NCBI GenBank assembly: GCA_910577955.1 | Contig: CAJTNC010000016.1 | Coordinates: 6,995 to 70,994 of the forward strand | Length of the DNA stretch: 64,000 nucleotides | Direction: 5' to 3' | Origin: an uncultured Lachnospiraceae bacterium | Lineage (GTDB): Bacteria; Bacillota; Clostridia; Lachnospirales; Lachnospiraceae | Part shown: in pieces, positions 9,195 through 21,558 of the stretch | How positions within the stretch are numbered: position 1 is the stretch's first letter | Layout: every line of letters begins with the position of its first letter | Position numbers and translations under genes: made by a program | Notes under the pieces: model-generated | Seen by the model: only the letters and a program-made list of their open reading frames with translations | Databases searched by the model: none | Told to the model about the DNA's origin: nothing

Positions 9195-10163
9195 ATGAGT
9201 AAAAGAAGCAGAAAAAGTTCCGCTGTGAAGGAGGCTAAAAGAAGACAGGAGGCAAAAGCAAATCTTCATTATAAAGATACGGTATTCCGTATGCTGTTCC
9301 GGGAGAAAAAGCGTCTGTTAGGGCTGTATAACGCGGTCAGTGGACGAAATTATGGTAATCCGGAAAAGCTGGATATCGTGACGTTAGAGAGCGCAGTGTA
9401 TCTGGGGATGAAAAACGATTTGGCGTTCATCATCGATATGAGACTGTACCTGTTTGAACATCAGTCAACCATGAACCCAAACATGCCTCTGAGATTTCTG
9501 CAGTATGTATCGGCGGAGTATGAGAAACTGATCATATCGAAAGACCTGCATAAGCAGGGGCAGGTAAAGATTCCCACGCCTCATTTCGTCGTGTTTTTTA
9601 ACGGGACAGAAAAGTGCGCGGAACGGCAGGAACTGCGGCTTTCGACTGCATATGAGGTGGCGGAGGAAGATCCGGAACTGGAACTGAGGGTGCAGGTCTT
9701 AAATATCAACGAGGGTTTTAATGAGGGGTTGAAAGAGGCGTGCCTGACGCTTAAAGAGTATATGCAGTATGTGGGTAAGGTTCGGACATATGCAGAGGAC
9801 ATCTCTGTAGACGAGGCTGTGGACAGAGCTGTGGATGAATGTATCGAGCAGGGGATTTTAAGAGAATTCCTGCTGCAGAACAAAGCGGAGGTAAGGCGCA
9901 TGAGTATTTTTGAGTATAATGAAGAAGCTGTGCGGCAGGCGCTTCGGGAAGAGGCCCGCGAGGAAGGATATGAAAAGGGAAGAGATCGAGGAAAGATAGA
10001 AGGAAAGATAGAAGATATCTTGTATTTACTGAAAGAAAAGGGGCCGGTTCCTGCGGAACTGGAGAAACAGATCAAGGAACAAAACGACGAAAATATTTTA
10101 CGGAAATGGCTAAAGCTTGCCGGCAGTGTGGGGAGCATCGAGGAATTCCGGATGGGAATATAA
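9195..10163 (+). CDS. Rpn-family recombination-promoting nuclease / putative transposase (PD-(D/E)XK, YhgA-like)
   Basis: N-terminus 'HYKDTVFRMLFREKKRLLGLYNAVSG...LDIVTLE...NDLAFIIDMRLYLFEHQST.NPNMPLRFLQY' matches the characteristic Rpn/YhgA-like core. The C-terminal part is a charged helical tail. Confidence 0.75.
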   Translation: MSKRSRKSSAVKEAKRRQEAKANLHYKDTVFRMLFREKKRLLGLYNAVSGRNYGNPEKLDIVTLESAVYLGMKNDLAFIIDMRLYLFEHQSTMNPNMPLRFLQYVSAEYEKLIISKDLHKQGQVKIPTPHFVVFFNGTEKCAERQELRLSTAYEVAEEDPELELRVQVLNINEGFNEGLKEACLTLKEYMQYVGKVRTYAEDISVDEAVDRAVDECIEQGILREFLLQNKAEVRRMSIFEYNEEAVRQALREEAREEGYEKGRDRGKIEGKIEDILYLLKEKGPVPAELEKQIKEQNDENILRKWLKLAGSVGSIEEFRMGI

Positions 10164-11120: not shown

Positions 11121-12527
11121 ATGCTATTTGATAAAGAATTGTTTGCATCAAAATATGTGGAATCTGATAAGCGAACGAATGTAGATACATTGATTCTTAT
11201 CGGAAACGGCTTTGATATCTGGCAGGGGCTGGATACAAGTTATGCATCTTTTGAAAAGTATTATGAAGCGCATCTGGATGAAGTGCTTACCCGTTTTCAT
11301 CTTAAGAAAAGAACACTTTTGGATAAAAATGGAAACATTATGTCAGATTGCACAGGCACTCCTGTTGTCTGTTCGGATGTTGAATTGTTTTATGGCGATC
11401 CGTTTCATCCGCAAAAGCTGCCACACGAGTTTTGGCGGGATTTTGAAACCGCTATGGATAAGGTGGATGATCAGGAAATAAATTATTTCTTTGGGCGCGA
11501 GGGAATTAAAGAGATTCAAAGGTGTGCAGATAACGCTCAGAGAATATTGAAAGAACTGTTCCGGGAATGGGTAATGTCAATTGATATCAGTGAGGAGATA
11601 CCGGAATATGAATTTGGCGATAATGTACTTTTTGTTAATTTTAATTATACCGATACACTGTTAAAACGTTTTGGCGTCAGGGAGATTAATGAATTTCACA
11701 TCCATGGCTCTGCGGATCAAAAAGAGTCTATTATTGTCGGACATGCAACACATCCGGAACTGCCATATGAGCCATTAAAAAACTTTAAGGATAAGCCGCG
11801 GTTTCAGGGGTTGTATTATATAGAGGAGTTTCTCTATAAAGCGGACAAGCATGTGGAAGATAACTATATGAAGCTGCAGGTATTTTGTGCGCTGCATGGA
11901 GCAAGGATCGAGGAGATAAAAAAGATATATGTGCTTGGACTGGGATTTGGAAATGCAGATTTAAGTTACATAAAACATTTTATCCATGAAACGCAGGGAA
12001 TAACAGAAAATCCGGAAGACAGTCTGTCTGGTGAAGAACTGTTTTATCTGAACTCTATGGATTATATGGGAATGATGAACCTGAACATGCACTATGCCAT
12101 TAGCCATCGGGAGCGGGTAATGAAAAAGGATCCGATCAGCTTTCCGGAATATGAACGTTTGGAGGACTTAATTGGCCCGTATGTGGAAGATCCGTATCAC
12201 CATATGGAACGGGACAGCCAAATGCGGCTGGAAGCGGCGGCAATCCGCCGGAGATTTTTGTCGGAACAGGAAGAGCGGAATAAAAAGATAAGGCGTGAAT
12301 ATTTGAGAATGCTGAACAAGAATCTGCATGTTGGATATACAGATCCGTCGGAGTTGTTCGTGAGACGGCGCGATAATGTTAAAAGACAGTCTGGTGCGGA
12401 ATGGCATATTTCATATTACAGTGATAAAGACTATAAAAGAATTGATGCGGTTATGAAAAATTATGGCTGCAATGATTATACGCTGCATGCTTCCATAAAT
12501 GAGTGCATAAACATATTTGCGAAATGA
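11121..12527 (+). CDS. AbiH-family abortive-infection protein
   Basis: 'LILIGNGFDIWQGLDTSY', 'FVNFNYTDTL' and 'EFHIHGS' are AbiH (PF14253-type) signatures. The start is ambiguous between GTG 11109 and ATG 11121. Confidence 0.7.
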   Translation: MLFDKELFASKYVESDKRTNVDTLILIGNGFDIWQGLDTSYASFEKYYEAHLDEVLTRFHLKKRTLLDKNGNIMSDCTGTPVVCSDVELFYGDPFHPQKLPHEFWRDFETAMDKVDDQEINYFFGREGIKEIQRCADNAQRILKELFREWVMSIDISEEIPEYEFGDNVLFVNFNYTDTLLKRFGVREINEFHIHGSADQKESIIVGHATHPELPYEPLKNFKDKPRFQGLYYIEEFLYKADKHVEDNYMKLQVFCALHGARIEEIKKIYVLGLGFGNADLSYIKHFIHETQGITENPEDSLSGEELFYLNSMDYMGMMNLNMHYAISHRERVMKKDPISFPEYERLEDLIGPYVEDPYHHMERDSQMRLEAAAIRRRFLSEQEERNKKIRREYLRMLNKNLHVGYTDPSELFVRRRDNVKRQSGAEWHISYYSDKDYKRIDAVMKNYGCNDYTLHASINECINIFAK

Positions 12528-12546
12528 CAGGCGGGGGGGAAACAAT

Positions 12547-13677
12547 ATGCAATTTCGTGATTTACAAAAACAGTATCAAATATTAAAACCCGATATGGAT
12601 ATAGCAATCGGTAAAGTGCTTGCAGACGGGAATTTTATTTCCGGCAGACAGGTGGCGGAATTGGAGGATCAGCTTGCAGCTTACGTGGGGGTGAAGCACT
12701 GTATTGCCTGCGGCAACGGCACAGATGCGCTGACATTGGCGCTGATGGTGTGGGATATCGGCTCGGGGGATGCCGTGTTTGTACCGGATTTTACATTTTT
12801 TGCATCCGGTGAGACACCGGCTTACGAGGGAGCAACGCCTGTATTTGTGGATGTGGAGGAGGATACTTTCAATATGTCTCCGACATCTTTGGAAGAGGCG
12901 GTATTAAAGATAAAAGAAGAAGGGAAACTGAGGCCGCGTGTGATTGTGGCAGTGGATCTTTTCGGACAGCCTGCGGATTATACGAGGATCCGTCAGATTG
13001 CGGAAAAGTATGACCTCTTGATTTTGGAGGACGGAGCGCAGGGCTTTGGCGGGCAGATCGGAGAACAGAGGGCCTGCAGTTTTGGCGATATTTCCACAAC
13101 TTCCTTTTTTCCGGCAAAGCCGCTTGGGTGCTATGGAGACGGCGGAGCGGTATTTACAGATCGTGACGAATGGGCAGAGCTGCTTCGTTCTTACCGCGTT
13201 CATGGAAAAGGGACGGACAAATATGATAATGTCCGGATTGGCATGAATTCCAGATTGGATACGCTGCAGGCAGCAGTCCTGCAGGTGAAATTGAAAGCAT
13301 TTGAAGAAAATGAACTGACGGCGGTCAACAGGGCTGCTGACTTCTATACGAAAAAACTGGGAACGATCGTGAAAACGCCGGAGGTCGGAGAAAACTTTTT
13401 CTCCAGCTGGGCACAGTATTCCATCCTTTTGAGAGACGAGGCGGAGCGCGACGGGCTTCAGGCTCATCTGAAAGGGAAAGGAATTCCCACGATGGTGTAC
13501 TATCCGAAACCGATGAGCAGACAGGGGGCATTTCAGGGCATTGATTGCGTGAAAACAGATTTGTCCGTTACTGCTGATTTGTGCACAAGAGTGCTGGCGC
13601 TGCCGATGCATCCGTATATAACGGAGGAAGAGCAGAATCAGGTGGTCGGGGAGATCAAGGCGTATATTTGTCAGTAA
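12547..13677 (+). CDS. DegT/DnrJ/EryC1/StrS-family PLP-dependent sugar aminotransferase (WbpE/PglE-like)
   Basis: 'FISGRQVAELEDQLAAYVGVKHCIACGNGTDAL', and 'SFFPAKPLGCYGDGG' containing the PLP lysine. The ATG at 12547 is preferred over the extended ORF at 12517. Confidence 0.85.
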   Translation: MQFRDLQKQYQILKPDMDIAIGKVLADGNFISGRQVAELEDQLAAYVGVKHCIACGNGTDALTLALMVWDIGSGDAVFVPDFTFFASGETPAYEGATPVFVDVEEDTFNMSPTSLEEAVLKIKEEGKLRPRVIVAVDLFGQPADYTRIRQIAEKYDLLILEDGAQGFGGQIGEQRACSFGDISTTSFFPAKPLGCYGDGGAVFTDRDEWAELLRSYRVHGKGTDKYDNVRIGMNSRLDTLQAAVLQVKLKAFEENELTAVNRAADFYTKKLGTIVKTPEVGENFFSSWAQYSILLRDEAERDGLQAHLKGKGIPTMVYYPKPMSRQGAFQGIDCVKTDLSVTADLCTRVLALPMHPYITEEEQNQVVGEIKAYICQ

Positions 13678-13708
13678 ATGAATAGAAAATAAATAGAAAT
13701 TGGTGAAA

Positions 13709-13755
13709 GTCCCGGGGTATTATAATGCAGAGCGCTGATATCCCGGGATTTTTGT
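13709..13755 (+). terminator. Rho-independent terminator after the aminotransferase gene
   Basis: Hairpin CCCGGGGTAT...ATATCCCGGG (13711-13747) is followed by ATTTTTGT. Confidence 0.6.
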
Positions 13756-13782
13756 ATTAATGTAACAATTTTCATAATATAA

Positions 13783-13811
13783 TTGCGCTTTTTTTGATTA
13801 ATGTTTATAAT
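13783..13811 (+). promoter_or_regulatory. Candidate promoter for the giant-ORF operon (TTGCGC-17-TATAAT)
   Basis: -35 TTGCGC at 13783-13788, a 17-nt spacer, and a perfect -10 TATAAT at 13806-13811. It lies downstream of the terminator and about 108 nt upstream of ATG 13919. Confidence 0.3.
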
Positions 13812-13918
13812 TTAATATGAAGAAGATATTTCTGTGTAGGAATCGCAAATTCAGATAACCTGAGCAGGATGCAGTGATTATGTGATATAGGAGAGATACT
13901 AAAGAGGGGGCAGTAAAG

Positions 13919-16900
13919 ATGGAGAAAAAGACAGTTGTTTTTATGCTGGAATACCTCCGAACAGGCGGATGGGGGGCGATCAGCGATTTTATCACTAAAT
14001 TTTCTGAAAGAATCCCCATGAATCGATCGGATACAGCTATTGCCTCTTCCTGTCTCTTTAAGGAATTTAAATCAGGCAGTAATTTTGATCTGGCTAAGTT
14101 AATTATAAAGAAAAGAGAAAAGTTTAAAAAGATCGAGAGACCGGAAAAAATATACGACGCAGGAGAAGAATACTATTATGTTTTCTTTATATCTGTACAG
14201 TATGAGCGTCTGGAGGACGTTGTGGATTTACAGAGTCTGTATTTGCTGATTGATGCGTGTGATACGGTCAAAGCCATTGCGCTCATAGAGGGAATACAAA
14301 AAGAATATCATAAGACATCGCACTTTTTTTCTTTTCTGACAGAACGCAAAGGTGGTATCTATGAAAGCATTTTTTTCAAATCTGATGATATCAAGCACTT
14401 ACAGAGGGCGGGAATAGGCACTTTATCAAGATTCCTGCCACTAATTCCTGTGAATAGATCCACAGAAAAACTTTTTCGGCAGAATGTCAGTGAGATAATA
14501 ACACAGGAACAGATAGTTCGGTGTCTCGAGGGATCAAAGGGAGAGGGAAAAAATACAGGTATTTGGGCAGGGGCATTAAAAAAACTCACTGAAAACCGTG
14601 GAAGATTGAAACAATGTGATTTGCAGCAGTGTGCTGCATATATGGGAAATGTTGAGACATTATCCTTTTTGTTGTTTTGCTTTTTTTTGGACGGAATCAA
14701 AGAAGATTTTTGGGATTTTGGGGGATTTAGCAGAGAATTTCAAAAAATCTCAATTTGGACAAACGGCTGTATCCAACTGATAGAAAATATTATTTTTCAC
14801 TCGGCTAATCAGAAAGGCGCTTTTTCTTTTCGGTTGTTGGAGAGTAATAATGTTTATCTGAAAAGTAAATATGGGATAGGGGACGATGAGAAAATCTGGC
14901 TTGAGTTGATGGTAACGGACTATCCGGGGCGTAGTCATACACGAAATATCGCGCAGAATTTTTGCGAGAATCTGGCAGAGGACAATATACGAAGTTGTTT
15001 TAAAGGCTTATCTCCGGAGGATTTTTTTGCGGAGGGAAATAAAGCGGAGATAGATGAAGCATGGAGGAAGTATTATCTGGACAAAGGAAATATGGTTAAT
15101 CATTATGGGCTGCGAATATTTCATAAAGCAGTGATTAAGAGCAACGGATATTTCATCATGCAGAGCCATTCCACGCATATCCCCAGAGAAGGGGAAAGAT
15201 TTTGTATGAGTCGGGATATTCGTGAAGAGAAAAATAAAATTTGTATGCCCGGGACAGGCTATTCTGTTTTGTTCCCTATAGTGCGGGAAGGAATTAAGAG
15301 GGAGTACATTGACTACGGGATTGAGAATTATGAAGGAAGGTTAAAGGATGACGATCAGTTTTTTGACTATGAGGTCATTCCCAAAAGGTTGTCGATTGCA
15401 GGCGATATTTCATCGGCTAAAACGAAACGAAAAACAATAAATGATCTGGCAAAGGAAATAGGAGACAACGAAAACAGCAAGAGTATTGTTTGTATTAATT
15501 GCGAAAATTTTCCGGGAAATCATGGAGAGATCGTGTACAAAGCTGTTAATCTTGCAATGCTCAAATATGAGAAGAATTTTCATGTTGTGCTGTATGGATG
15601 CCATTCGGAATTTGTGCAGGTGTTCCTGACGGCCGCATATTTGGGGTGGCAGAATCTGAAAGAGGAGTCGACCTATAATGGAAAAAAGCAGATTGCACTC
15701 TACACTGCAGGGCAGTATGAGGAAATACGCATTTTACCGGAGAACTGGTATGCAACATTAGAATTGAATCGAAAGAATAATTTTTCCAGAGAAACAAGGT
15801 GGGCAGACTACTTTGAAAAGTGGGACAGTGGAACAGCCCAAGAACGGGCTAAGACATATGTGGCGAATTATCCTTTTGACGTAGTGGCAACAGATGAACA
15901 GGGAAATACAATATTTGAAAAGTATGTGGAAACTGTTATAGAACGGAATATTCAGAGTGAAAAGCTTGGGTGCAAAATAGAGAATGTCCATATGCGCTTA
16001 GGATCCACCATTCACGTAAATCATTTTTACGAGGCCGAAATTTTATTCGGAAATTTTTATTTTGTGGAACGGTTTGCTATGTTGATGATCAAAAGCATGT
16101 GCAGGTCTGAAGAAAAGCCGCCGATTCAGAGTACTGACAAAGTGACGTTGTATGGATATAGCAATTATTCGGAGCAGACGGTGTACTGTACGATGCAGTT
16201 TCTGCGCAGGATGCTGCCGGGAATAGACGTTGACTATGCTATATTGGAGCGGGAAGCTGAGGAAAGGGGTTTTACACATGTGGATCGAATCAGGTACAGT
16301 ACTTATTTTGAAGAGGATGGGATAAAAAGGCGGAAAGAACATTTCCGATCCAGAAAAATAGTCTGTATCATTCCAATTGCCAGCACGCTAAAGACGAATG
16401 AGAAGATGATCAATTTATTTGCAGAAGAAAACGGGAAGGAAACCAGAGATGCGTTTTGGCATAATTTTGAGTTGATTTTAGTCGGATCAGCAGAAGATAA
16501 TGAATATTGGGAAAAAGAGGGGAAGCATATATCCGGAAAGAAAGGAATGGAAATATCTCCTGAACCGGAATTTTTTGTGGAGGTTGCATTGACATATATG
16601 GAACCGCTGAAATGTAATATGTGTTTTCCCGAGTGTATCATAGATGAGCAGCCGTTGGTGGAGGTAAATGCGGCCTCTACGATCCCCAATCAGGCTTTTG
16701 GGCTGATTGAGGAAAAATGCGGACTTCCTGCTATTACCAGAGACCAGATATTGCAGGAAGAAGAGAAGATGGAAATATTAAAGGATATTTTGATATATCG
16801 ACACATAGAAAAGAATGAGAACCATTTTCTTTTTTATTTTCAGTCTGAGAGACTGCTTATCAGGTATTCGGAAAAAATCAGGGATTGGCTTAAAGGAATA

Positions 16901-19900
16901 GGAGGGGAAATAAAGAAAAGCATAGCTCGTGAAGACTATGTGGTTCTGTTTTGTCCGGCTCATTTCAGCAATGCCGGATTTGTCGAATGCGTAAATAACT
17001 ATGTTTTCGGGAGTGCGGCAGTAGTCATACGGGACGATGTGGATAAAGAGTACAGATGCAATTTCAAAACGAAATTTTCAAATATGAGAAAGTTTGTAGA
17101 AAAAATTGCAAAGTATCAGTCAGATAACGGTGAGCGACAGAGGAGAATACATTTTTTCTATGTAGACGAAACGATTGTGACAGGGAACACTTTTCAAAGG
17201 GCGAAAAGTCTGGTGCAATCGGTCATAGGGGATTATGTGCTGTCGGAAAGGCAGAAATATGTGGTTTTTGAAGGGATTTTTGTCTTAATCGACCGAAATT
17301 CCAGATCCAGCAGATGGCAGTATACAGGACTGGGAGAGGAAGAACGCCTCTATGCATTCAGGACAATCCATATCTCTTCTGTCAGAAATCATGGTGATGC
17401 CTGTGTCTACTGTAATCTGGCAAAAGAGGCGGAGACATTGAAACGGAGTTCCGTGACAAAGACAATGGAAAAATACTGGGAATCTGAGGAAGAAAAGTTT
17501 TCTGTGAAGCCTCTGGTCAGATATCTGAGATATGGGGAAGAAAGCGGCGGGCAGCAGGAGGATGTAAAGAAAAAGCAGGAGGATGTAGAGAAAAAGAAAA
17601 AACGCGCGTTTCGGCGGCTGTGCTGTACGAATAATGCCATGGTATTTTTGAAAGATGAATACCATGGGAATCAGAAAGAGGTGGTGCTGGAGCAGCTCCT
17701 GACTTTGATATTGGAGGGGAGCGCCATACATGCAGGGGAAGAGGCGGAGTACTTTCTGTCTTATTGCAAAGTGCTCAGCAGACCTTTCCGGGTATTTGAC
17801 AAGGGCGTGAAGGAGGCGGTTTTTGATTTTCTGTTAGTGGCCTGCCAGAGCGCTCTGGCAGAAGAGCCTTATGGGGATATCATTAAAAGCAGTGTGAAGA
17901 AGCCATATTTAAGGAAAGAAAATATTAAGTTAAAGTTGTTGGATGTAGAAAGGTTTGTCCAAGATTATTTTCGGACTGGGGACATGTGGCAGGATCTGCT
18001 CAAGGTGCTGCTAAAACAGTTGACAGAGATGAAGAGCAATTTTATTCTCAGAGAAACCAATATGAGACAGATTCTGGAATACGCGAATGGATTAAATGAG
18101 GGGAATAAAATTAAGTTTCTCCAGTATTATAAATGCCTGACAAAAAGACTGACCGGAATCAGCTCGGATACCAGCAAGTGCCTGTGGCTGGATAATATGC
18201 TCAGAGACAGACCGGAACTTTTGAAACAGGCTGTCCCGCAGGATATTTATCTGGAAAATGTTTGGATCTATCAGGATGCTTTCCAAAAGTTGAATGGAAG
18301 GATAAGGGCTGCGGGATGGGCAGAAATTTTGGAGAGCAGTTCGGGCGATATTTCGGAAGAAAATCTGGCACGGTTTGAAAGGGAGGAGCTGGAAGAGCAC
18401 ATAACGCCATATCAATTTAAAGATTTTATTAAACTGCTGGAACTGTATGGTTTGAGAGAGGAAACGGCGGGATTTTGTGAAGAGGGGCGGGTCTTTGTGG
18501 CAGCAAATTATCTGCTGTACAAGTTTATATCGCAGGAATTTACCAAGTCACCGAAAAAAGCGGATCCTGCAAAGCAGGGGAATTTGGATAAGGTCGATCA
18601 TATTGCAGCGTGCATTAAACATATTATAAAGGCAAAGGATGTTGTCATTATGATGGAGTTTAATGCGGAATACGATCTATGGGAAAGCAAGCTTATTGAG
18701 CGTTACAATGCGCTGATGACGGAACCTCAAGGAAAAATAAAACATGATTTAAAAAAAGAGTATCTTGTTCTTGGAAGCAGCGGAGGGAGGAGCAAGGAAT
18801 GGACTATCAAAGAGAGTGAGGCCATCAGTTTGGTACAGAAAGTTCAGAATAAAAAGGGCTTGACAGAGAAAGAGTACTCATTTAGTCTAAAAGAAGGTAC
18901 GTTTCTTTGGGAAGTGGGCCATACTACGGAATATCCGGTATATATCTTTGCAAGATGGGAAGGCTCTGAACAGGGCAGTATGGCAGAGATAGACAGGCTG
19001 AACCGTATCCGAAGCGTTCTGCAGTATTGCTGGATGCTAAATGATTCTGTTTTTAATAAGGGAAATGAGGTCTTTTTCTATGAGATCGCACGTCAGCGGA
19101 AGCAGAATGCAATACAGAGCATGCAGAAAGCATATACGCATACAAAAAGCGATATCAGGATGGAACAGTACAATCATATGCTGAATAAAAAAAAGTATAA
19201 CGGGTATTTTCAGTCGGAACTGCTGATGCTGTTAGCAGATTTGAATGTGAGCGAGCATTACAGAAAAAGTCTGACAATGGATTATTACTTGGAAGGGATT
19301 CCGATGCGTCCTGAAAGATGGAATTCAGAGCTGTCGCTTTTCAAAGACATGAACAGTTTTTATATCTTAAACAGTGATGATGAAAAAGCTACAGAACTGA
19401 AGGTATCTAAGGAAGTGCTGTTTGAAGGAGATATTCCGCTGCAGGGAGATGAGGAAGTTATCGCGCTTGACTACACTAATGCGGAACGAGAGACGTTCCT
19501 GCTGATATATTCCTTGATGGTCAATGCGGTGACGGATGGCCGGGGCTTCATGGAAAATAATTGTGTGACGGTTTATTGCACCAAAACTGCCGGAGGACGG
19601 CTGCGGCTGGCGAACCGTATCGGGGCGGGGGCCGGAGTTCGTACGCCTGAACAGATTATGGAAGGGCTGAGATATCCTCCGGAGGAGGAAGGTCAGGGGA
19701 TTTCACTGTGGAGTATGTCTCGCTACATCAAACGAATGATAGCAAATTACCTGAATACGGATATAAAAAAACTGGAAAGATCGGCAGGGGATGTTGATCC
19801 TGCTTCTCTGATATTGCTGGGGAATAAGATCAAGAAAATGATGGGAGAGGAATTCCGGATAGATATCCGAAAGGAAAAGGTTGGGGATAAAGAATATTTT

Positions 19901-19942
19901 TCTGTATTGCTGCCCGTTTTTGCAGAAAAATATTATGAGTGA
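13919..19942 (+). CDS. Giant (2007 aa) cytoplasmic multidomain protein: N-terminal HATPase_c-like module, two PRTase-like modules, C-terminal histidine-kinase-like transmitter; function unknown
   Basis: Uninterrupted 6-kb ORF with an AGAGGGGG SD. Module 1 has 'ENIIFHSAN', 'VTDYPG', 'NHYGLRIF' and 'GTGYSVLFPI'. The PRTase-like PRPP loop is 'IHFFYVDETIVTGNT' followed by 'FVLIDRN'; a degenerate copy is 'IVCIIPIASTLKT'. The C-terminal module has 'MVNAVTDG', 'NRIGAGAG', 'GQGISLWSM' and 'YFSVLLPV'. No TM segment or signal peptide. Confidence 0.85.
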   Translation: MEKKTVVFMLEYLRTGGWGAISDFITKFSERIPMNRSDTAIASSCLFKEFKSGSNFDLAKLIIKKREKFKKIERPEKIYDAGEEYYYVFFISVQYERLEDVVDLQSLYLLIDACDTVKAIALIEGIQKEYHKTSHFFSFLTERKGGIYESIFFKSDDIKHLQRAGIGTLSRFLPLIPVNRSTEKLFRQNVSEIITQEQIVRCLEGSKGEGKNTGIWAGALKKLTENRGRLKQCDLQQCAAYMGNVETLSFLLFCFFLDGIKEDFWDFGGFSREFQKISIWTNGCIQLIENIIFHSANQKGAFSFRLLESNNVYLKSKYGIGDDEKIWLELMVTDYPGRSHTRNIAQNFCENLAEDNIRSCFKGLSPEDFFAEGNKAEIDEAWRKYYLDKGNMVNHYGLRIFHKAVIKSNGYFIMQSHSTHIPREGERFCMSRDIREEKNKICMPGTGYSVLFPIVREGIKREYIDYGIENYEGRLKDDDQFFDYEVIPKRLSIAGDISSAKTKRKTINDLAKEIGDNENSKSIVCINCENFPGNHGEIVYKAVNLAMLKYEKNFHVVLYGCHSEFVQVFLTAAYLGWQNLKEESTYNGKKQIALYTAGQYEEIRILPENWYATLELNRKNNFSRETRWADYFEKWDSGTAQERAKTYVANYPFDVVATDEQGNTIFEKYVETVIERNIQSEKLGCKIENVHMRLGSTIHVNHFYEAEILFGNFYFVERFAMLMIKSMCRSEEKPPIQSTDKVTLYGYSNYSEQTVYCTMQFLRRMLPGIDVDYAILEREAEERGFTHVDRIRYSTYFEEDGIKRRKEHFRSRKIVCIIPIASTLKTNEKMINLFAEENGKETRDAFWHNFELILVGSAEDNEYWEKEGKHISGKKGMEISPEPEFFVEVALTYMEPLKCNMCFPECIIDEQPLVEVNAASTIPNQAFGLIEEKCGLPAITRDQILQEEEKMEILKDILIYRHIEKNENHFLFYFQSERLLIRYSEKIRDWLKGIGGEIKKSIAREDYVVLFCPAHFSNAGFVECVNNYVFGSAAVVIRDDVDKEYRCNFKTKFSNMRKFVEKIAKYQSDNGERQRRIHFFYVDETIVTGNTFQRAKSLVQSVIGDYVLSERQKYVVFEGIFVLIDRNSRSSRWQYTGLGEEERLYAFRTIHISSVRNHGDACVYCNLAKEAETLKRSSVTKTMEKYWESEEEKFSVKPLVRYLRYGEESGGQQEDVKKKQEDVEKKKKRAFRRLCCTNNAMVFLKDEYHGNQKEVVLEQLLTLILEGSAIHAGEEAEYFLSYCKVLSRPFRVFDKGVKEAVFDFLLVACQSALAEEPYGDIIKSSVKKPYLRKENIKLKLLDVERFVQDYFRTGDMWQDLLKVLLKQLTEMKSNFILRETNMRQILEYANGLNEGNKIKFLQYYKCLTKRLTGISSDTSKCLWLDNMLRDRPELLKQAVPQDIYLENVWIYQDAFQKLNGRIRAAGWAEILESSSGDISEENLARFEREELEEHITPYQFKDFIKLLELYGLREETAGFCEEGRVFVAANYLLYKFISQEFTKSPKKADPAKQGNLDKVDHIAACIKHIIKAKDVVIMMEFNAEYDLWESKLIERYNALMTEPQGKIKHDLKKEYLVLGSSGGRSKEWTIKESEAISLVQKVQNKKGLTEKEYSFSLKEGTFLWEVGHTTEYPVYIFARWEGSEQGSMAEIDRLNRIRSVLQYCWMLNDSVFNKGNEVFFYEIARQRKQNAIQSMQKAYTHTKSDIRMEQYNHMLNKKKYNGYFQSELLMLLADLNVSEHYRKSLTMDYYLEGIPMRPERWNSELSLFKDMNSFYILNSDDEKATELKVSKEVLFEGDIPLQGDEEVIALDYTNAERETFLLIYSLMVNAVTDGRGFMENNCVTVYCTKTAGGRLRLANRIGAGAGVRTPEQIMEGLRYPPEEEGQGISLWSMSRYIKRMIANYLNTDIKKLERSAGDVDPASLILLGNKIKKMMGEEFRIDIRKEKVGDKEYFSVLLPVFAEKYYE

Positions 19943-19959
19943 TGGTGAGGAGGTTTTAC

Positions 19960-20448
19960 ATGAAAAGAATTGTGATAGTTGAAGACAGACCGTGGAAAAT
20001 GCGGAGTTGCATTAAGGAACTGCAGAGCAAGGGGATAACCTTCTATAAGACAATATACTATCGCAACAATTCATTAGATACGAAGACACAGGAAGAATTG
20101 CTGAATCAGTATATTGAGGATACAGGCATGGAAATCGAGAGGGTGAACAGTCAGGAAGAATTTGTGAGCAAAATGGATGATGCGTATCAAGTTTCCGATA
20201 CTATTTTTCTGATGGATTATGATCTGAAAGGAGATATGAACAGGGAAGACTTTTTTACGAGAGTCAATGTGAGGTATGCGCTTGCAAGGGACAAAGAACG
20301 GATATGGTTCTATACGACAGGGCCAAGCGATATCAAGGGAATACTGTTGGATACTTTTCCCGACCATGTAATCAGCGTAAAGGTTACGGACAATATGCAG
20401 GGATTCTGGGATGAGGAACAGATAAGGGCTGCCGTTCAGACCGGTTAA
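19960..20448 (+). CDS. Stand-alone receiver (CheY-like REC) domain protein
   Basis: 'RIVIVEDRP' is a beta1 strand with an acidic pair. 'TIFLMDYDLKGD' holds the candidate phospho-Asp D86, 'IWFYTTGP' holds T119/T120, and 'VISVK' holds K141. The D-T-K spacing (33/22) mirrors CheY D57-T87-K109. GGTGAGGAGG SD lies 6 nt before the ATG, 17 nt after the giant ORF stop. Confidence 0.6.
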   Translation: MKRIVIVEDRPWKMRSCIKELQSKGITFYKTIYYRNNSLDTKTQEELLNQYIEDTGMEIERVNSQEEFVSKMDDAYQVSDTIFLMDYDLKGDMNREDFFTRVNVRYALARDKERIWFYTTGPSDIKGILLDTFPDHVISVKVTDNMQGFWDEEQIRAAVQTG

Positions 20449-20466
20449 GACCGCAGGAGCAGAGAT

Positions 20467-21558
20467 ATGGATATTTTGTACTATTATACAACGGCAGAGA
20501 CAATGAAATATATTCTGACGCAGGGAGATATATTTGCCACGCATATCAGTTATCTGAACGATTCGGAAGAGTATGTGAATGGTTTGCGGGAACTCAGAGA
20601 GGTGTTTTCAGGAGAGAGTCTGAGAGAACTGTGCGGCACAGGAATAAAAGAATATCTGGAAGGGGAAGCTTATGAAGACGCGCTGAAAGATATTCCGCAG
20701 ATTTATTCTATCTCTTTTTCAAAAGAAGCAGATTTGTTGAGCCAGTGGTATATGTATGCGAGGGAATCCGGTGTCCGTCTGGGGATGCTGTTTTCCGGAG
20801 AAAAGCAGAACTTTAAAATAAAGCAGAAGGATGCAAAAGGGTTGAAAGCTCCGGATGATAAGATGAGGGAGGCAGAGGCATCCTTAAAGGATGTACATTA
20901 TTTTACCCGGATAGGTATGTCGTTGGAGGAATATACTGAAGCAACGGAATCTATTGCGCAGATTGTGAAAGAATATGCGGAAGAGCTTGGAGTAGATGAT
21001 TTTGACGCGAATGCTGTCCGACTTTGGAAAGGGATCGCGCCTTACATAAAAAATTATGAATTTCGGCAGGAAAGAGAAGTAAGGCTTGTATTTGATGCCG
21101 TTATTCGGGGGGCAAGCAGTTCCTATGTGGATCTGATAGAATACCGGAATGGGAACGGAGTTCTGATTCCTTATCTGGATGTATACCGTGAAAAGGGCTG
21201 GCCCGTTGTAGAGATTATGGTAGGTCCGGGCAGAAATCAGGACAGGGTGTTCCGCAGCATCTGTCATTTTGTGGACAATAATAGTTTAAAGATTCCGGAA
21301 ATAGACCAGAAGGAGAGCGTGAGGCGCTTCATGGGGGGTATGTCCTCCTATCAGGTAGAACAGAATCAGATTGAGGCATATTGCGGAGAAATTGATAAGA
21401 GCGTTGCAGAGGGAGGAAAAATTATAACCCATAAAAGTGCGGCGTATGAAATCTTAAAAAAGAAAACAGGCCGCGAACGGGAATATTTGGAAAGAAATTA
21501 TTATTCTAATTGCGGAATCATTGTGAGAAAGTCTAATGCGCCGTATGTTTTTTCCTAA
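20467..21558 (+). CDS. DUF2971-like protein (unknown function)
   Basis: 'ILYYYTTAETMKYILTQGDIFATHISYLNDSEE', 'IYSISFSKEADLLSQWYMYA' and 'IKNYEFRQEREVRLV' match the three conserved blocks I associate with DUF2971. AGGAG SD lies 7 nt upstream, 18 nt after the REC gene. Confidence 0.6.
   Translation: MDILYYYTTAETMKYILTQGDIFATHISYLNDSEEYVNGLRELREVFSGESLRELCGTGIKEYLEGEAYEDALKDIPQIYSISFSKEADLLSQWYMYARESGVRLGMLFSGEKQNFKIKQKDAKGLKAPDDKMREAEASLKDVHYFTRIGMSLEEYTEATESIAQIVKEYAEELGVDDFDANAVRLWKGIAPYIKNYEFRQEREVRLVFDAVIRGASSSYVDLIEYRNGNGVLIPYLDVYREKGWPVVEIMVGPGRNQDRVFRSICHFVDNNSLKIPEIDQKESVRRFMGGMSSYQVEQNQIEAYCGEIDKSVAEGGKIITHKSAAYEILKKKTGREREYLERNYYSNCGIIVRKSNAPYVFS

Follow-up and report, generated by a model that had tools for sequence, protein, structure and literature searches.

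A 64-kb window (here always the whole stretch of 64,000 nucleotides that was analysed) from the genome of an uncultured Lachnospiraceae bacterium encodes a cassette of three genes, designated A, B, and C, that is kept together in distant relatives. Its products are a very large protein with phosphoribosyltransferase (PRTase) and kinase-like folds, a small receiver-like protein, and a member of the DUF2971 family. The arrangement is a strong, well-conserved candidate for a sensor-plus-effector cassette, resting on a large family of proteins that goes unannotated in current resources. We put at about one in two (0.5) the probability that it acts against phage or other mobile elements by a route of the abortive-infection type, with a logic like that of two-component signaling. 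The three genes are as follows.

13919-19942, plus strand: gene A, an open reading frame (ORF) for a 2007-residue multidomain protein, proposed sensor/transducer
19960-20448, plus strand: gene B, encoding a Rossmann-like, receiver-like protein of 162 residues, proposed coupler
20467-21558, plus strand: gene C, encoding a DUF2971-family protein of 363 residues, predicted ADP-ribosyltransferase (ART) effector

The genes are separated by gaps of 17 nt (A to B) and 18 nt (B to C), and purine-rich Shine-Dalgarno sites lie upstream of all three alike; ORF coordinates and sequence agree here with an earlier sequence-only reading of this DNA, which had described three closely packed, co-directional genes with these gaps and sites. 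The ORF listing begins gene B at a GTG codon at 19939, while the best start is the ATG at 19960, with GGAGG seven bases before it.

Conservation of the cassette as a unit

A word-indexed search returned 42 relatives of gene A. An exhaustive profile search with residues 250-1449 found 1229 cluster representatives (clusters formed at 50% identity) at E<=1e-3, 850 of them at E<=1e-30, and nearly all members of the family are 1.9 to 2.3 thousand residues in length. Scanning one genome per species identified 44 loci, chiefly in Lachnospiraceae (Acetatifactor, Dorea, Blautia, Roseburia, Agathobacter, Sporofaciens, and Bariatricus) and some in Oscillospiraceae and Christensenellaceae. Two loci in the scan lie outside the Bacillota, the cassette in a member of the Gastranaerophilales (L022) and gene A alone in a member of the Omnitrophota (L059), which suggests horizontal transfer.

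Synteny was assessed by comparing profiles of A, B, and C with all ORFs of the fetched loci. Among 45 non-redundant loci having both A and C, 44 show the order gene A, small ORF, gene C on one strand, with a spacing from A to C of 433 to 643 nt; the sole exception is a decayed copy with an insertion. Stop and start codons at the junctions frequently overlap among loci, and the divergence of gene A is correlated with that of gene C (Spearman rho 0.74). The trio co-occurs in distant relatives as a self-contained cassette; that it is self-contained had been proposed by the sequence-only reading from the window by itself. In the most distant clade (L041-L058) the gene B profile fails, yet an ORF of 168-214 residues always lies between A and C, and this middle ORF is homologous to B (hhalign probability 95%).

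Two distant relatives of gene A that bear a Metallophos domain are longer, at 2353-2418 residues (L015:7161-15726 and L062:897-7958). In the first of these loci, an 80-residue protein and a Band_7 (SPFH) protein follow in place of B and C, which suggests that the partners of A are exchangeable output modules. This swap fits a role for A as sensor or switch and for C as effector. Decay is seen elsewhere: gene A is split into two to four ORFs in L025, L026, L038, and L039, and gene C is split in L017 and L030. L026, from Sporofaciens musculi, also carries a 1.6-kb insertion between A and B. The distribution of the cassette is patchy, and some copies are pseudogenes.

Scans with Pfam, NCBIfam, and PADLOC gave no match to gene A and matches below threshold only to genes B and C. 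Pfam searches of gene A relatives, 22 of them close and 22 distant, returned no consistent family; Pribosyltran, HATPase_c, and HisKA were each without a match in these 44 members. When sequence profiles of A, B, and C were searched against solved structures, the only matches were to designed proteins or attributable to chance. Public records label all three proteins "hypothetical protein," and literature searches for this gene combination turned up no description. The sequence-only reading had known of no described system with this gene set; PADLOC indeed assigns the trio to none, and neither Pfam, NCBIfam, nor the literature searched gives it a name.

Architecture of the three proteins

The AlphaFold2 model of gene A covers residues 941-2007 and was built from 42 sequences; its mean predicted local distance difference test score (pLDDT) is 83.4 and its predicted template modeling score (pTM) is 0.75. 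Conservation was counted over 165 full-length relatives. Five regions are distinguished, the third of which includes a loop of the type that binds phosphoribosyl pyrophosphate (PRPP).

14741-15298, plus strand: residues 275-460, GHKL/HATPase-like motif set (QLIEN290, D334-Y-P-G, H395-Y-G-L, P444-G-T446)
15836-16723, plus strand: residues 640-935, conserved module whose PRPP-loop-like motif (IIPIASTLKT) is degenerate, also containing C899xxC902
16739-17518, plus strand: residues 941-1200, type I PRTase fold in the model, with intact PRPP loop FYVDETIVTGNT and C1162xxC1165
17519-18628, plus strand: residues 1201-1570, all-helical region by AlphaFold2 secondary structure, with conserved motifs RAFRRL, SRPF, SSDTSK, and YLEN
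18638-19939, plus strand: residues 1574-2007, sensor-kinase-like module by Foldseek, hhalign, and conservation

The best-founded assignment is that of residues 941-1200. Foldseek comparison of the model with the PDB matched this region to the OPRT structure 4ohc, the APRT structure 6fd5, and many HGPRTs, with probability 1.00 and template modeling (TM) scores of 0.45-0.59 by target. Within the PRPP loop, D1083 is conserved in 163 of 165 relatives, an Asp or Glu occupies position 1084 in 148, and G1089 is found in 161; R1126 is found in all 165. The loop also falls in register with those of Hpt, Apt, and PyrE by hhalign. As judged from the model, a type I PRTase fold with a PRPP-binding loop is confirmed for this region, and the PRTase label that the sequence-only reading had offered by eye is upheld there.

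The preceding module, residues 640-935, is marked by H691, H699, T826, C899, and C902, each present in 165 of 165 sequences, and by a PRPP-loop-like motif that lacks the acidic residues. Comparisons by hhalign with PRTases and with the second PRTase-like module were not significant, and by its motif the region is possibly a second PRTase-like domain, an assignment that is unproven. One CxxC pair follows each of the two PRTase-like modules, and all four cysteines (C899, C902, C1162, C1165) are invariant in the 165 sequences; the two pairs might share a single zinc site between both modules. An internal duplication in gene A was considered and set aside: the two modules did not match significantly, and the GHKL-like region aligned with the C-terminal domain in register but weakly.

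The modeled part of gene A runs from the alpha/beta PRTase (residues 941-1180) through about 390 helical residues to a small alpha/beta domain (residues 1574-1680), beyond which His1741 is surrounded by long paired helices and the chain ends in an alpha/beta sandwich containing N1869 and G1927-I-S. Kinase-type Foldseek matches to this C-terminal part include phytochrome A kinase-related chains (E 7e-3, probability 0.97) and chimeras of LOV domains with histidine kinases (about 0.8). A hand-typed profile of HK853, EnvZ, and PhoQ aligned with the terminal sandwich by hhalign at 49% probability, with N-box and G2-box in register. H1741, flanked by long helices, is invariant in the 156 relatives aligned at that position, and N1869 is Asn in 108 of 133. 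A kinase-like module at the C-terminus of A is supported by fold, in the model, and by conservation. The PRPP loop, H1741, and N1869 had all been picked out by eye, and each choice has held up.

That reading had further described gene A as a dual HATPase protein. Its C-terminal copy stands on fold and conservation; the N-terminal copy stands at the level of motifs, the fold test having covered the C-terminal copy. In residues 275-460, N290 is conserved in 164 of 165 relatives, D334 in 163, G397 in 165, and G445 in 163, and the motifs stand in the order of GHKL motifs I-IV; hhalign alignments with ATP-binding domains of kinases (3-31%) and with the C-terminal ATP-binding domain of A (9-31%) are in register but weak. 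A second ATPase module at the N-terminus of A is therefore a candidate, recognized by its motifs.

The AlphaFold2 model of gene B (pLDDT 92.9, pTM 0.90) is a beta/alpha structure with six to seven strands, and the top 50 Foldseek matches are Rossmann-type folds (G6PD, LDH/MDH, SDR, GART, QueC, and the CARF domain of Csm6). Positions D9, D86, D88, K90, G91, D92, and T119, each situated where a strand ends on its C-terminal side, show little or no variation. With a receiver profile typed by hand, hhalign reached 27-30% probability and paired D86 with D57 of CheY; with CheY alone, the probability was 0.4%. The fetched loci themselves contained only two kinase and three receiver domains usable as templates. 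B proteins of the most distant clade show a more receiver-like pattern than the window's B, an ED, D, T/S series with a Lys in 11 of 18 sequences, and their Asp and Thr fall in register with D57 and T87 of receivers (hhalign 25%). We regard gene B as receiver-like; its membership in the receiver family is unproven. Two other assignments for B were tried and rejected. It has no glycine motifs of a macrodomain antidote, and no macrodomain occurred among its Foldseek matches; the E/D...DxD pattern would fit a Toprim nuclease, but no Toprim structure was found among the top Foldseek matches.

The gene C protein of the window scores 16.8 bits against the DUF2971 model PF11185, below its cut-off of 22 bits. 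For its family the result is clearer: 46 of 68 members match PF11185 at E<=0.01, the best at 1.2e-6, so that the DUF2971 label given by the sequence-only reading is borne out at family level. Searching with gene C by tblastn further retrieved 130 plasmid genes annotated as DUF2971, with E values reaching 8e-16 over residues 4-275. Invariant in the 68 sequences are N31-D32..E35, a block SISFS..SQW..Y97, and E202xE204. DUF2971 proteins have been predicted to be ADP-ribosyltransferases resembling DarT and AbiGi, with a Tyr in motif II and an ExE motif III, to which Y97 and E202/E204 of gene C correspond (PMC12522546). A 316-residue DUF2971 protein with an ART fold by AlphaFold, Aristaios, constitutes by itself an antiphage system of the abortive-infection type in Lactococcus (PMC11381338). 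By analogy with these published cases, from which the fold assignment is taken, we predict that gene C encodes an ART-type effector (PMC12522546, PMC11381338). The comparison with Aristaios holds at family level, through DUF2971 and the predicted ART fold; Aristaios acts alone, whereas gene C is always coupled to A and B and has an additional C-terminal region of about 150 residues. That DUF2971 is a predicted ART family, and that one member is the sole gene of a validated system, are two facts absent from the sequence-only reading, and they strengthen the case for defense.

Genomic context and proposed function

Neighbors of the cassette change from locus to locus and include defense genes, integrases, and surface-glycan genes. 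Defense neighborhoods are clear in places, where they comprise two NACHT proteins, AAA_15/21 pairs, a UvrD-like helicase, and a DUF4062 protein; elsewhere there is a FokI/Mrr nuclease, or a pair of thymidylate-kinase and radical-SAM proteins adjoining a Metallophos protein, and pVip-like genes are also among the neighbors. In the flanks of 33 further loci, 125 genes were scanned and together matched 46 PADLOC models at E<=1e-10 (a raw count), among them mad3 (four times), PDC-S20, ThsA, LmuA, DolB, QatA, PifA, and pVip. Pfam searches of the same 125 genes found three phage-type integrases, AAA_21, and PDDEXK_9; the commonest families were glycan enzymes (GDP-mannose dehydratase/epimerase, RmlD, GT2). 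P0040 and P0041 lie on contigs too short for their surroundings to be informative. The variable, defense-bearing context that the sequence-only reading had anticipated is thus seen across loci.

In the mechanism that we infer, which takes in the trigger, the phosphotransfer, and the target of gene C as well as the defense function itself, gene A would be the sensor and switch, combining a PRTase fold that binds PRPP or a nucleotide with a C-terminal, kinase-like ATP-binding module. What the PRTase fold reads would probably be a phage product or the cell's nucleotide state. PurR and PyrR are examples of PRTase-fold regulators that sense PRPP or nucleotides; the fold in gene A, with its PRPP loop intact, may be such a sensor or may provide a second catalytic activity. 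Once triggered, A would autophosphorylate at His1741. Gene B would take up the signal, by accepting phosphate on Asp86 or by binding, and would then release or activate C, which would use NAD+ to modify DNA or another essential target, so that phage replication and growth would stop. Because the kinase-like module has an invariant His and B has receiver-type acidic residues, we infer phosphotransfer as the leading model.

A number of observations weigh against this interpretation. The kinase-type Foldseek matches of gene A have low TM scores, and in the model His1741 sits in a loop of lower confidence (pLDDT 61-75), not on a clear helix. For gene B, no receiver appears among the top 50 Foldseek matches; this result is not decisive, because a receiver with an extra beta-alpha unit has the Rossmann strand order, and with six to seven strands in B, longer Rossmann alignments may outrank receivers of 120 residues. 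The Pfam model Response_reg (PF00072) scores 13.4 bits against the window's B, where the cut-off is 30.2 bits, and matches none of 10 B proteins of the distant clade; the beta-5 Lys is not conserved in the clade of the window's B. The sequence profile of gene C detects no ART among solved structures. For the cassette as a whole, a PADLOC-DB scan with A, B, and C returned no family at E<=1, and no relatives of gene A were found by tblastn on plasmids and phages or by a scan of viral contigs. One locus has the cassette among housekeeping genes. Since the PADLOC rate has no background control, an "enrichment" of defense genes in the flanks is a judgement. Lastly, surface-glycan clusters house many of the loci: in the window and in L001, L004, L005, and L011 the cassette is found within or next to genes of surface-glycan or teichoic type. 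What stands of the "receiver-only" label given to gene B is thus the conservation of its Asp/Asp/Thr positions, in register with those of receivers; what does not is recognition as a receiver by Pfam or by Foldseek. Two of the four domain labels in the sequence-only reading are accordingly unproven.

The killing enzyme could instead be the PRTase of gene A, poisoning nucleotide pools as ShosT does, with B and C as regulators or accessories. The PRTases of ShosTA, PsyrTA, type III retrons, and Ophion work as toxins or effectors (PMC11961720; bioRxiv 10.1101/2025.09.30.679545). With ShosTA/PsyrTA, type III-A3 retrons (Retron-Eco11), and OpnC of Ophion, gene A shares the type I PRTase fold and a defense-like context, and its PRPP loop is intact and nearly invariant. 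In those systems, however, the PRTase is a small stand-alone effector, whereas in gene A it is embedded in a protein of 2007 residues with a kinase-like module, and the PADLOC models for ShosT and retron PRTases do not match it. A DUF2971 protein alone suffices as an effector, moreover, and 44 of 45 loci retain C, while the core of A persists with differing downstream partners, which fits a sensor better. We consider it unlikely that A is the toxin.

DarTG consists of DarT, a DNA ADP-ribosyltransferase toxin, and a macrodomain antitoxin. Genes A, B, and C might similarly form a toxin-antitoxin addiction module that stabilizes its island with no phage sensing, C being the toxin, B its direct antitoxin, and A a modulator. 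We think this about as improbable as a PRTase toxin, despite several features that suit it: B and C are always together, at tight or overlapping junctions; ARTs like DarT are classical toxins; the decay of some copies points to a cost; and DUF2971 is reported to be similar in sequence to DarT and AbiGi, including the ExE motif (PMC12522546), seen in gene C as E202xE204. The cassette has no macrodomain partner, however, B being neither that nor another known ART antidote, and in gene C the His of motif I is replaced by Tyr (YYYTT). Simple addiction does not readily account for a conserved partner of 2000 residues whose catalytic-type residues are invariant, and tblastn with gene A found no plasmid copy.

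Less probable again, in our estimation, is that the cassette has no part in immunity and provides signaling that tunes surface-glycan synthesis or nucleotide-sugar metabolism. Its place in or beside polysaccharide loci in the five cases named above, the predominance of glycan enzymes among flanking families, and the suitability of PRPP or nucleotide sensing for metabolic control all speak for such a role. Other loci, though, have zero glycan genes, the cassette has no DNA-binding output domain, and its output belongs to a toxin-type ART family with a validated defense member. Glycan loci are themselves variable regions that gather defense genes, AbiH in the case of the window, and a patchy distribution with some pseudogene copies also speaks against a metabolic role. 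Very improbable is an inter-bacterial or host-directed toxin system with C as a delivered ART effector: in pathogens, some DUF2971 proteins are predicted to be secreted as effectors (PMC12522546), but the surveyed neighborhoods contain no secretion or immunity partners, and the partners of C look cytoplasmic and enzymatic.

Related systems and surroundings of the cassette

Read as a defense system, the cassette shares with Detocs its three-gene layout: a kinase-like protein whose His is invariant comes first, a small receiver-like protein second, and third an enzyme that in both would attack a nucleotide cofactor pool or an essential target. Detocs, attributed to Rousset and coworkers in 2023, reportedly comprises a sensor kinase (DtcA), a receiver that acts as a buffer (DtcB), and an effector joining a receiver to a purine nucleoside phosphorylase (DtcC). 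The differences are considerable. Detocs PADLOC models do not match A, B, or C; gene A has 2007 residues, with PRTase-fold modules and a putative extra GHKL module at its N-terminus; gene B is not a receiver that Pfam or Foldseek would recognize; and gene C is a DUF2971/ART protein from residue 4 on, with no receiver domain, and is not a phosphorylase. The Detocs-like logic that had been suggested for these genes is consistent with the kinase-like module and with the conserved Asp/Asp/Thr of B, but the phosphorelay part of it hangs on gene B being a receiver, and that identity is not established. In Ambrosia, the HATPase protein AbrB and the REC protein AbrC control a module like restriction-modification (bioRxiv 10.1101/2025.09.30.679545). 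The likeness lies in a kinase-like ATPase with a receiver-type partner in defense; the outputs of Ambrosia are a methylase and an HNH nuclease rather than an ART, and its domains are canonical and recognizable where those of the cassette are not.

If the defense interpretation is true, a family of 1229 clusters joins bacterial immunity that current annotation and defense-finder models do not see, concentrated in Lachnospiraceae, abundant gut commensals whose phage defenses are little studied. The cassette would link signaling like that of two-component systems (Detocs, Ambrosia) with PRTase-fold defense (ShosTA, retrons, Ophion) and with ADP-ribosylating effectors (DarT, Aristaios), and would show a DUF2971 toxin capable of acting alone placed under a dedicated sensor. 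A bolder version, which we offer tentatively and think rather doubtful, is a new class of immune signaling: through tandem PRTase-fold modules with a four-Cys zinc site, a giant kinase-like A would read PRPP or nucleotide status, or a phage-made nucleotide, and would relay phosphate via a non-canonical receiver to a DarT-like ART, the A family (more than 1200 clusters) being a widespread sensor scaffold of gut Clostridia with exchangeable effectors. Under the defense interpretation in general, recurrent placement in glycan loci would bear on the co-inheritance of receptor variation and intracellular immunity; the placement may reflect either shared hypervariability or a functional link.

Two signals lie between gene A and the aminotransferase gene upstream.

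13705-13753, plus strand: hairpin and T-run, which likely terminate transcription of the DegT aminotransferase gene upstream and insulate the cassette
13783-13811, plus strand: promoter candidate, TTGCGC-17 nt-TATAAT, read from sequence and weakly evidenced

The hairpin, of 18 bp or more, folds as RNA at -26.7 kcal/mol (z = -4.47), with none of 200 shuffles as stable, in agreement with the terminator proposed by the sequence-only reading; a consensus terminator scan missed it because that scan accepts only loops of 3-8 nt. The promoter suggested at the same time fared less well. Its TATAAT at 13806-13811 is perfect, but the -35 element TTGCGC agrees with the consensus at three of six positions, the candidate does not pass a consensus scan, and shuffled sequence yields promoter-like sites at least as often as this region does.

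On the other side, a convergent gene for a DUF6044 membrane protein ends 9 nt past gene C, as had been noted before; an exact look-up of this flank matched one contig only. The GC content across the cassette block is 0.38-0.44 against about 0.49 for 24-64 kb, so the block is more AT-rich than the genes to its right, again as first described. The left third of the window is a surface-glycan locus of the nonulosonic-acid type, with two CMP-sugar synthetase-like genes, a GT52/polysialyltransferase-like gene, a flippase, a DegT gene, and a PseB-like dehydratase gene. The neighboring AbiH gene was correctly recognized: 11109-12527 matches AbiH in Pfam (1.4e-33) and also the PADLOC AbiH model, about 1.4 kb upstream of gene A, with DegT (12517-13677) alone in between. 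AbiH overlaps the start of DegT by 11 nt, placing a defense gene within a glycan biosynthesis operon. The second proposed defense neighbor, an Rpn-family gene at 9195-10163, had no match in Pfam and PADLOC scans and showed weak similarity by tblastn (E about 4e-5) to genes on plasmids that are labeled "Rpn family recombination-promoting nuclease." This ORF encodes 322 residues, has a GC content of 0.46 in a background of 0.28-0.32, and shows 40% identity to a hypothetical gene of Lachnospira eligens. GC skew is strongly positive (about +0.13 to +0.33) over nearly the whole window and the genes are mostly on the plus strand, a pattern that would be expected on the leading strand of a Bacillota chromosome.

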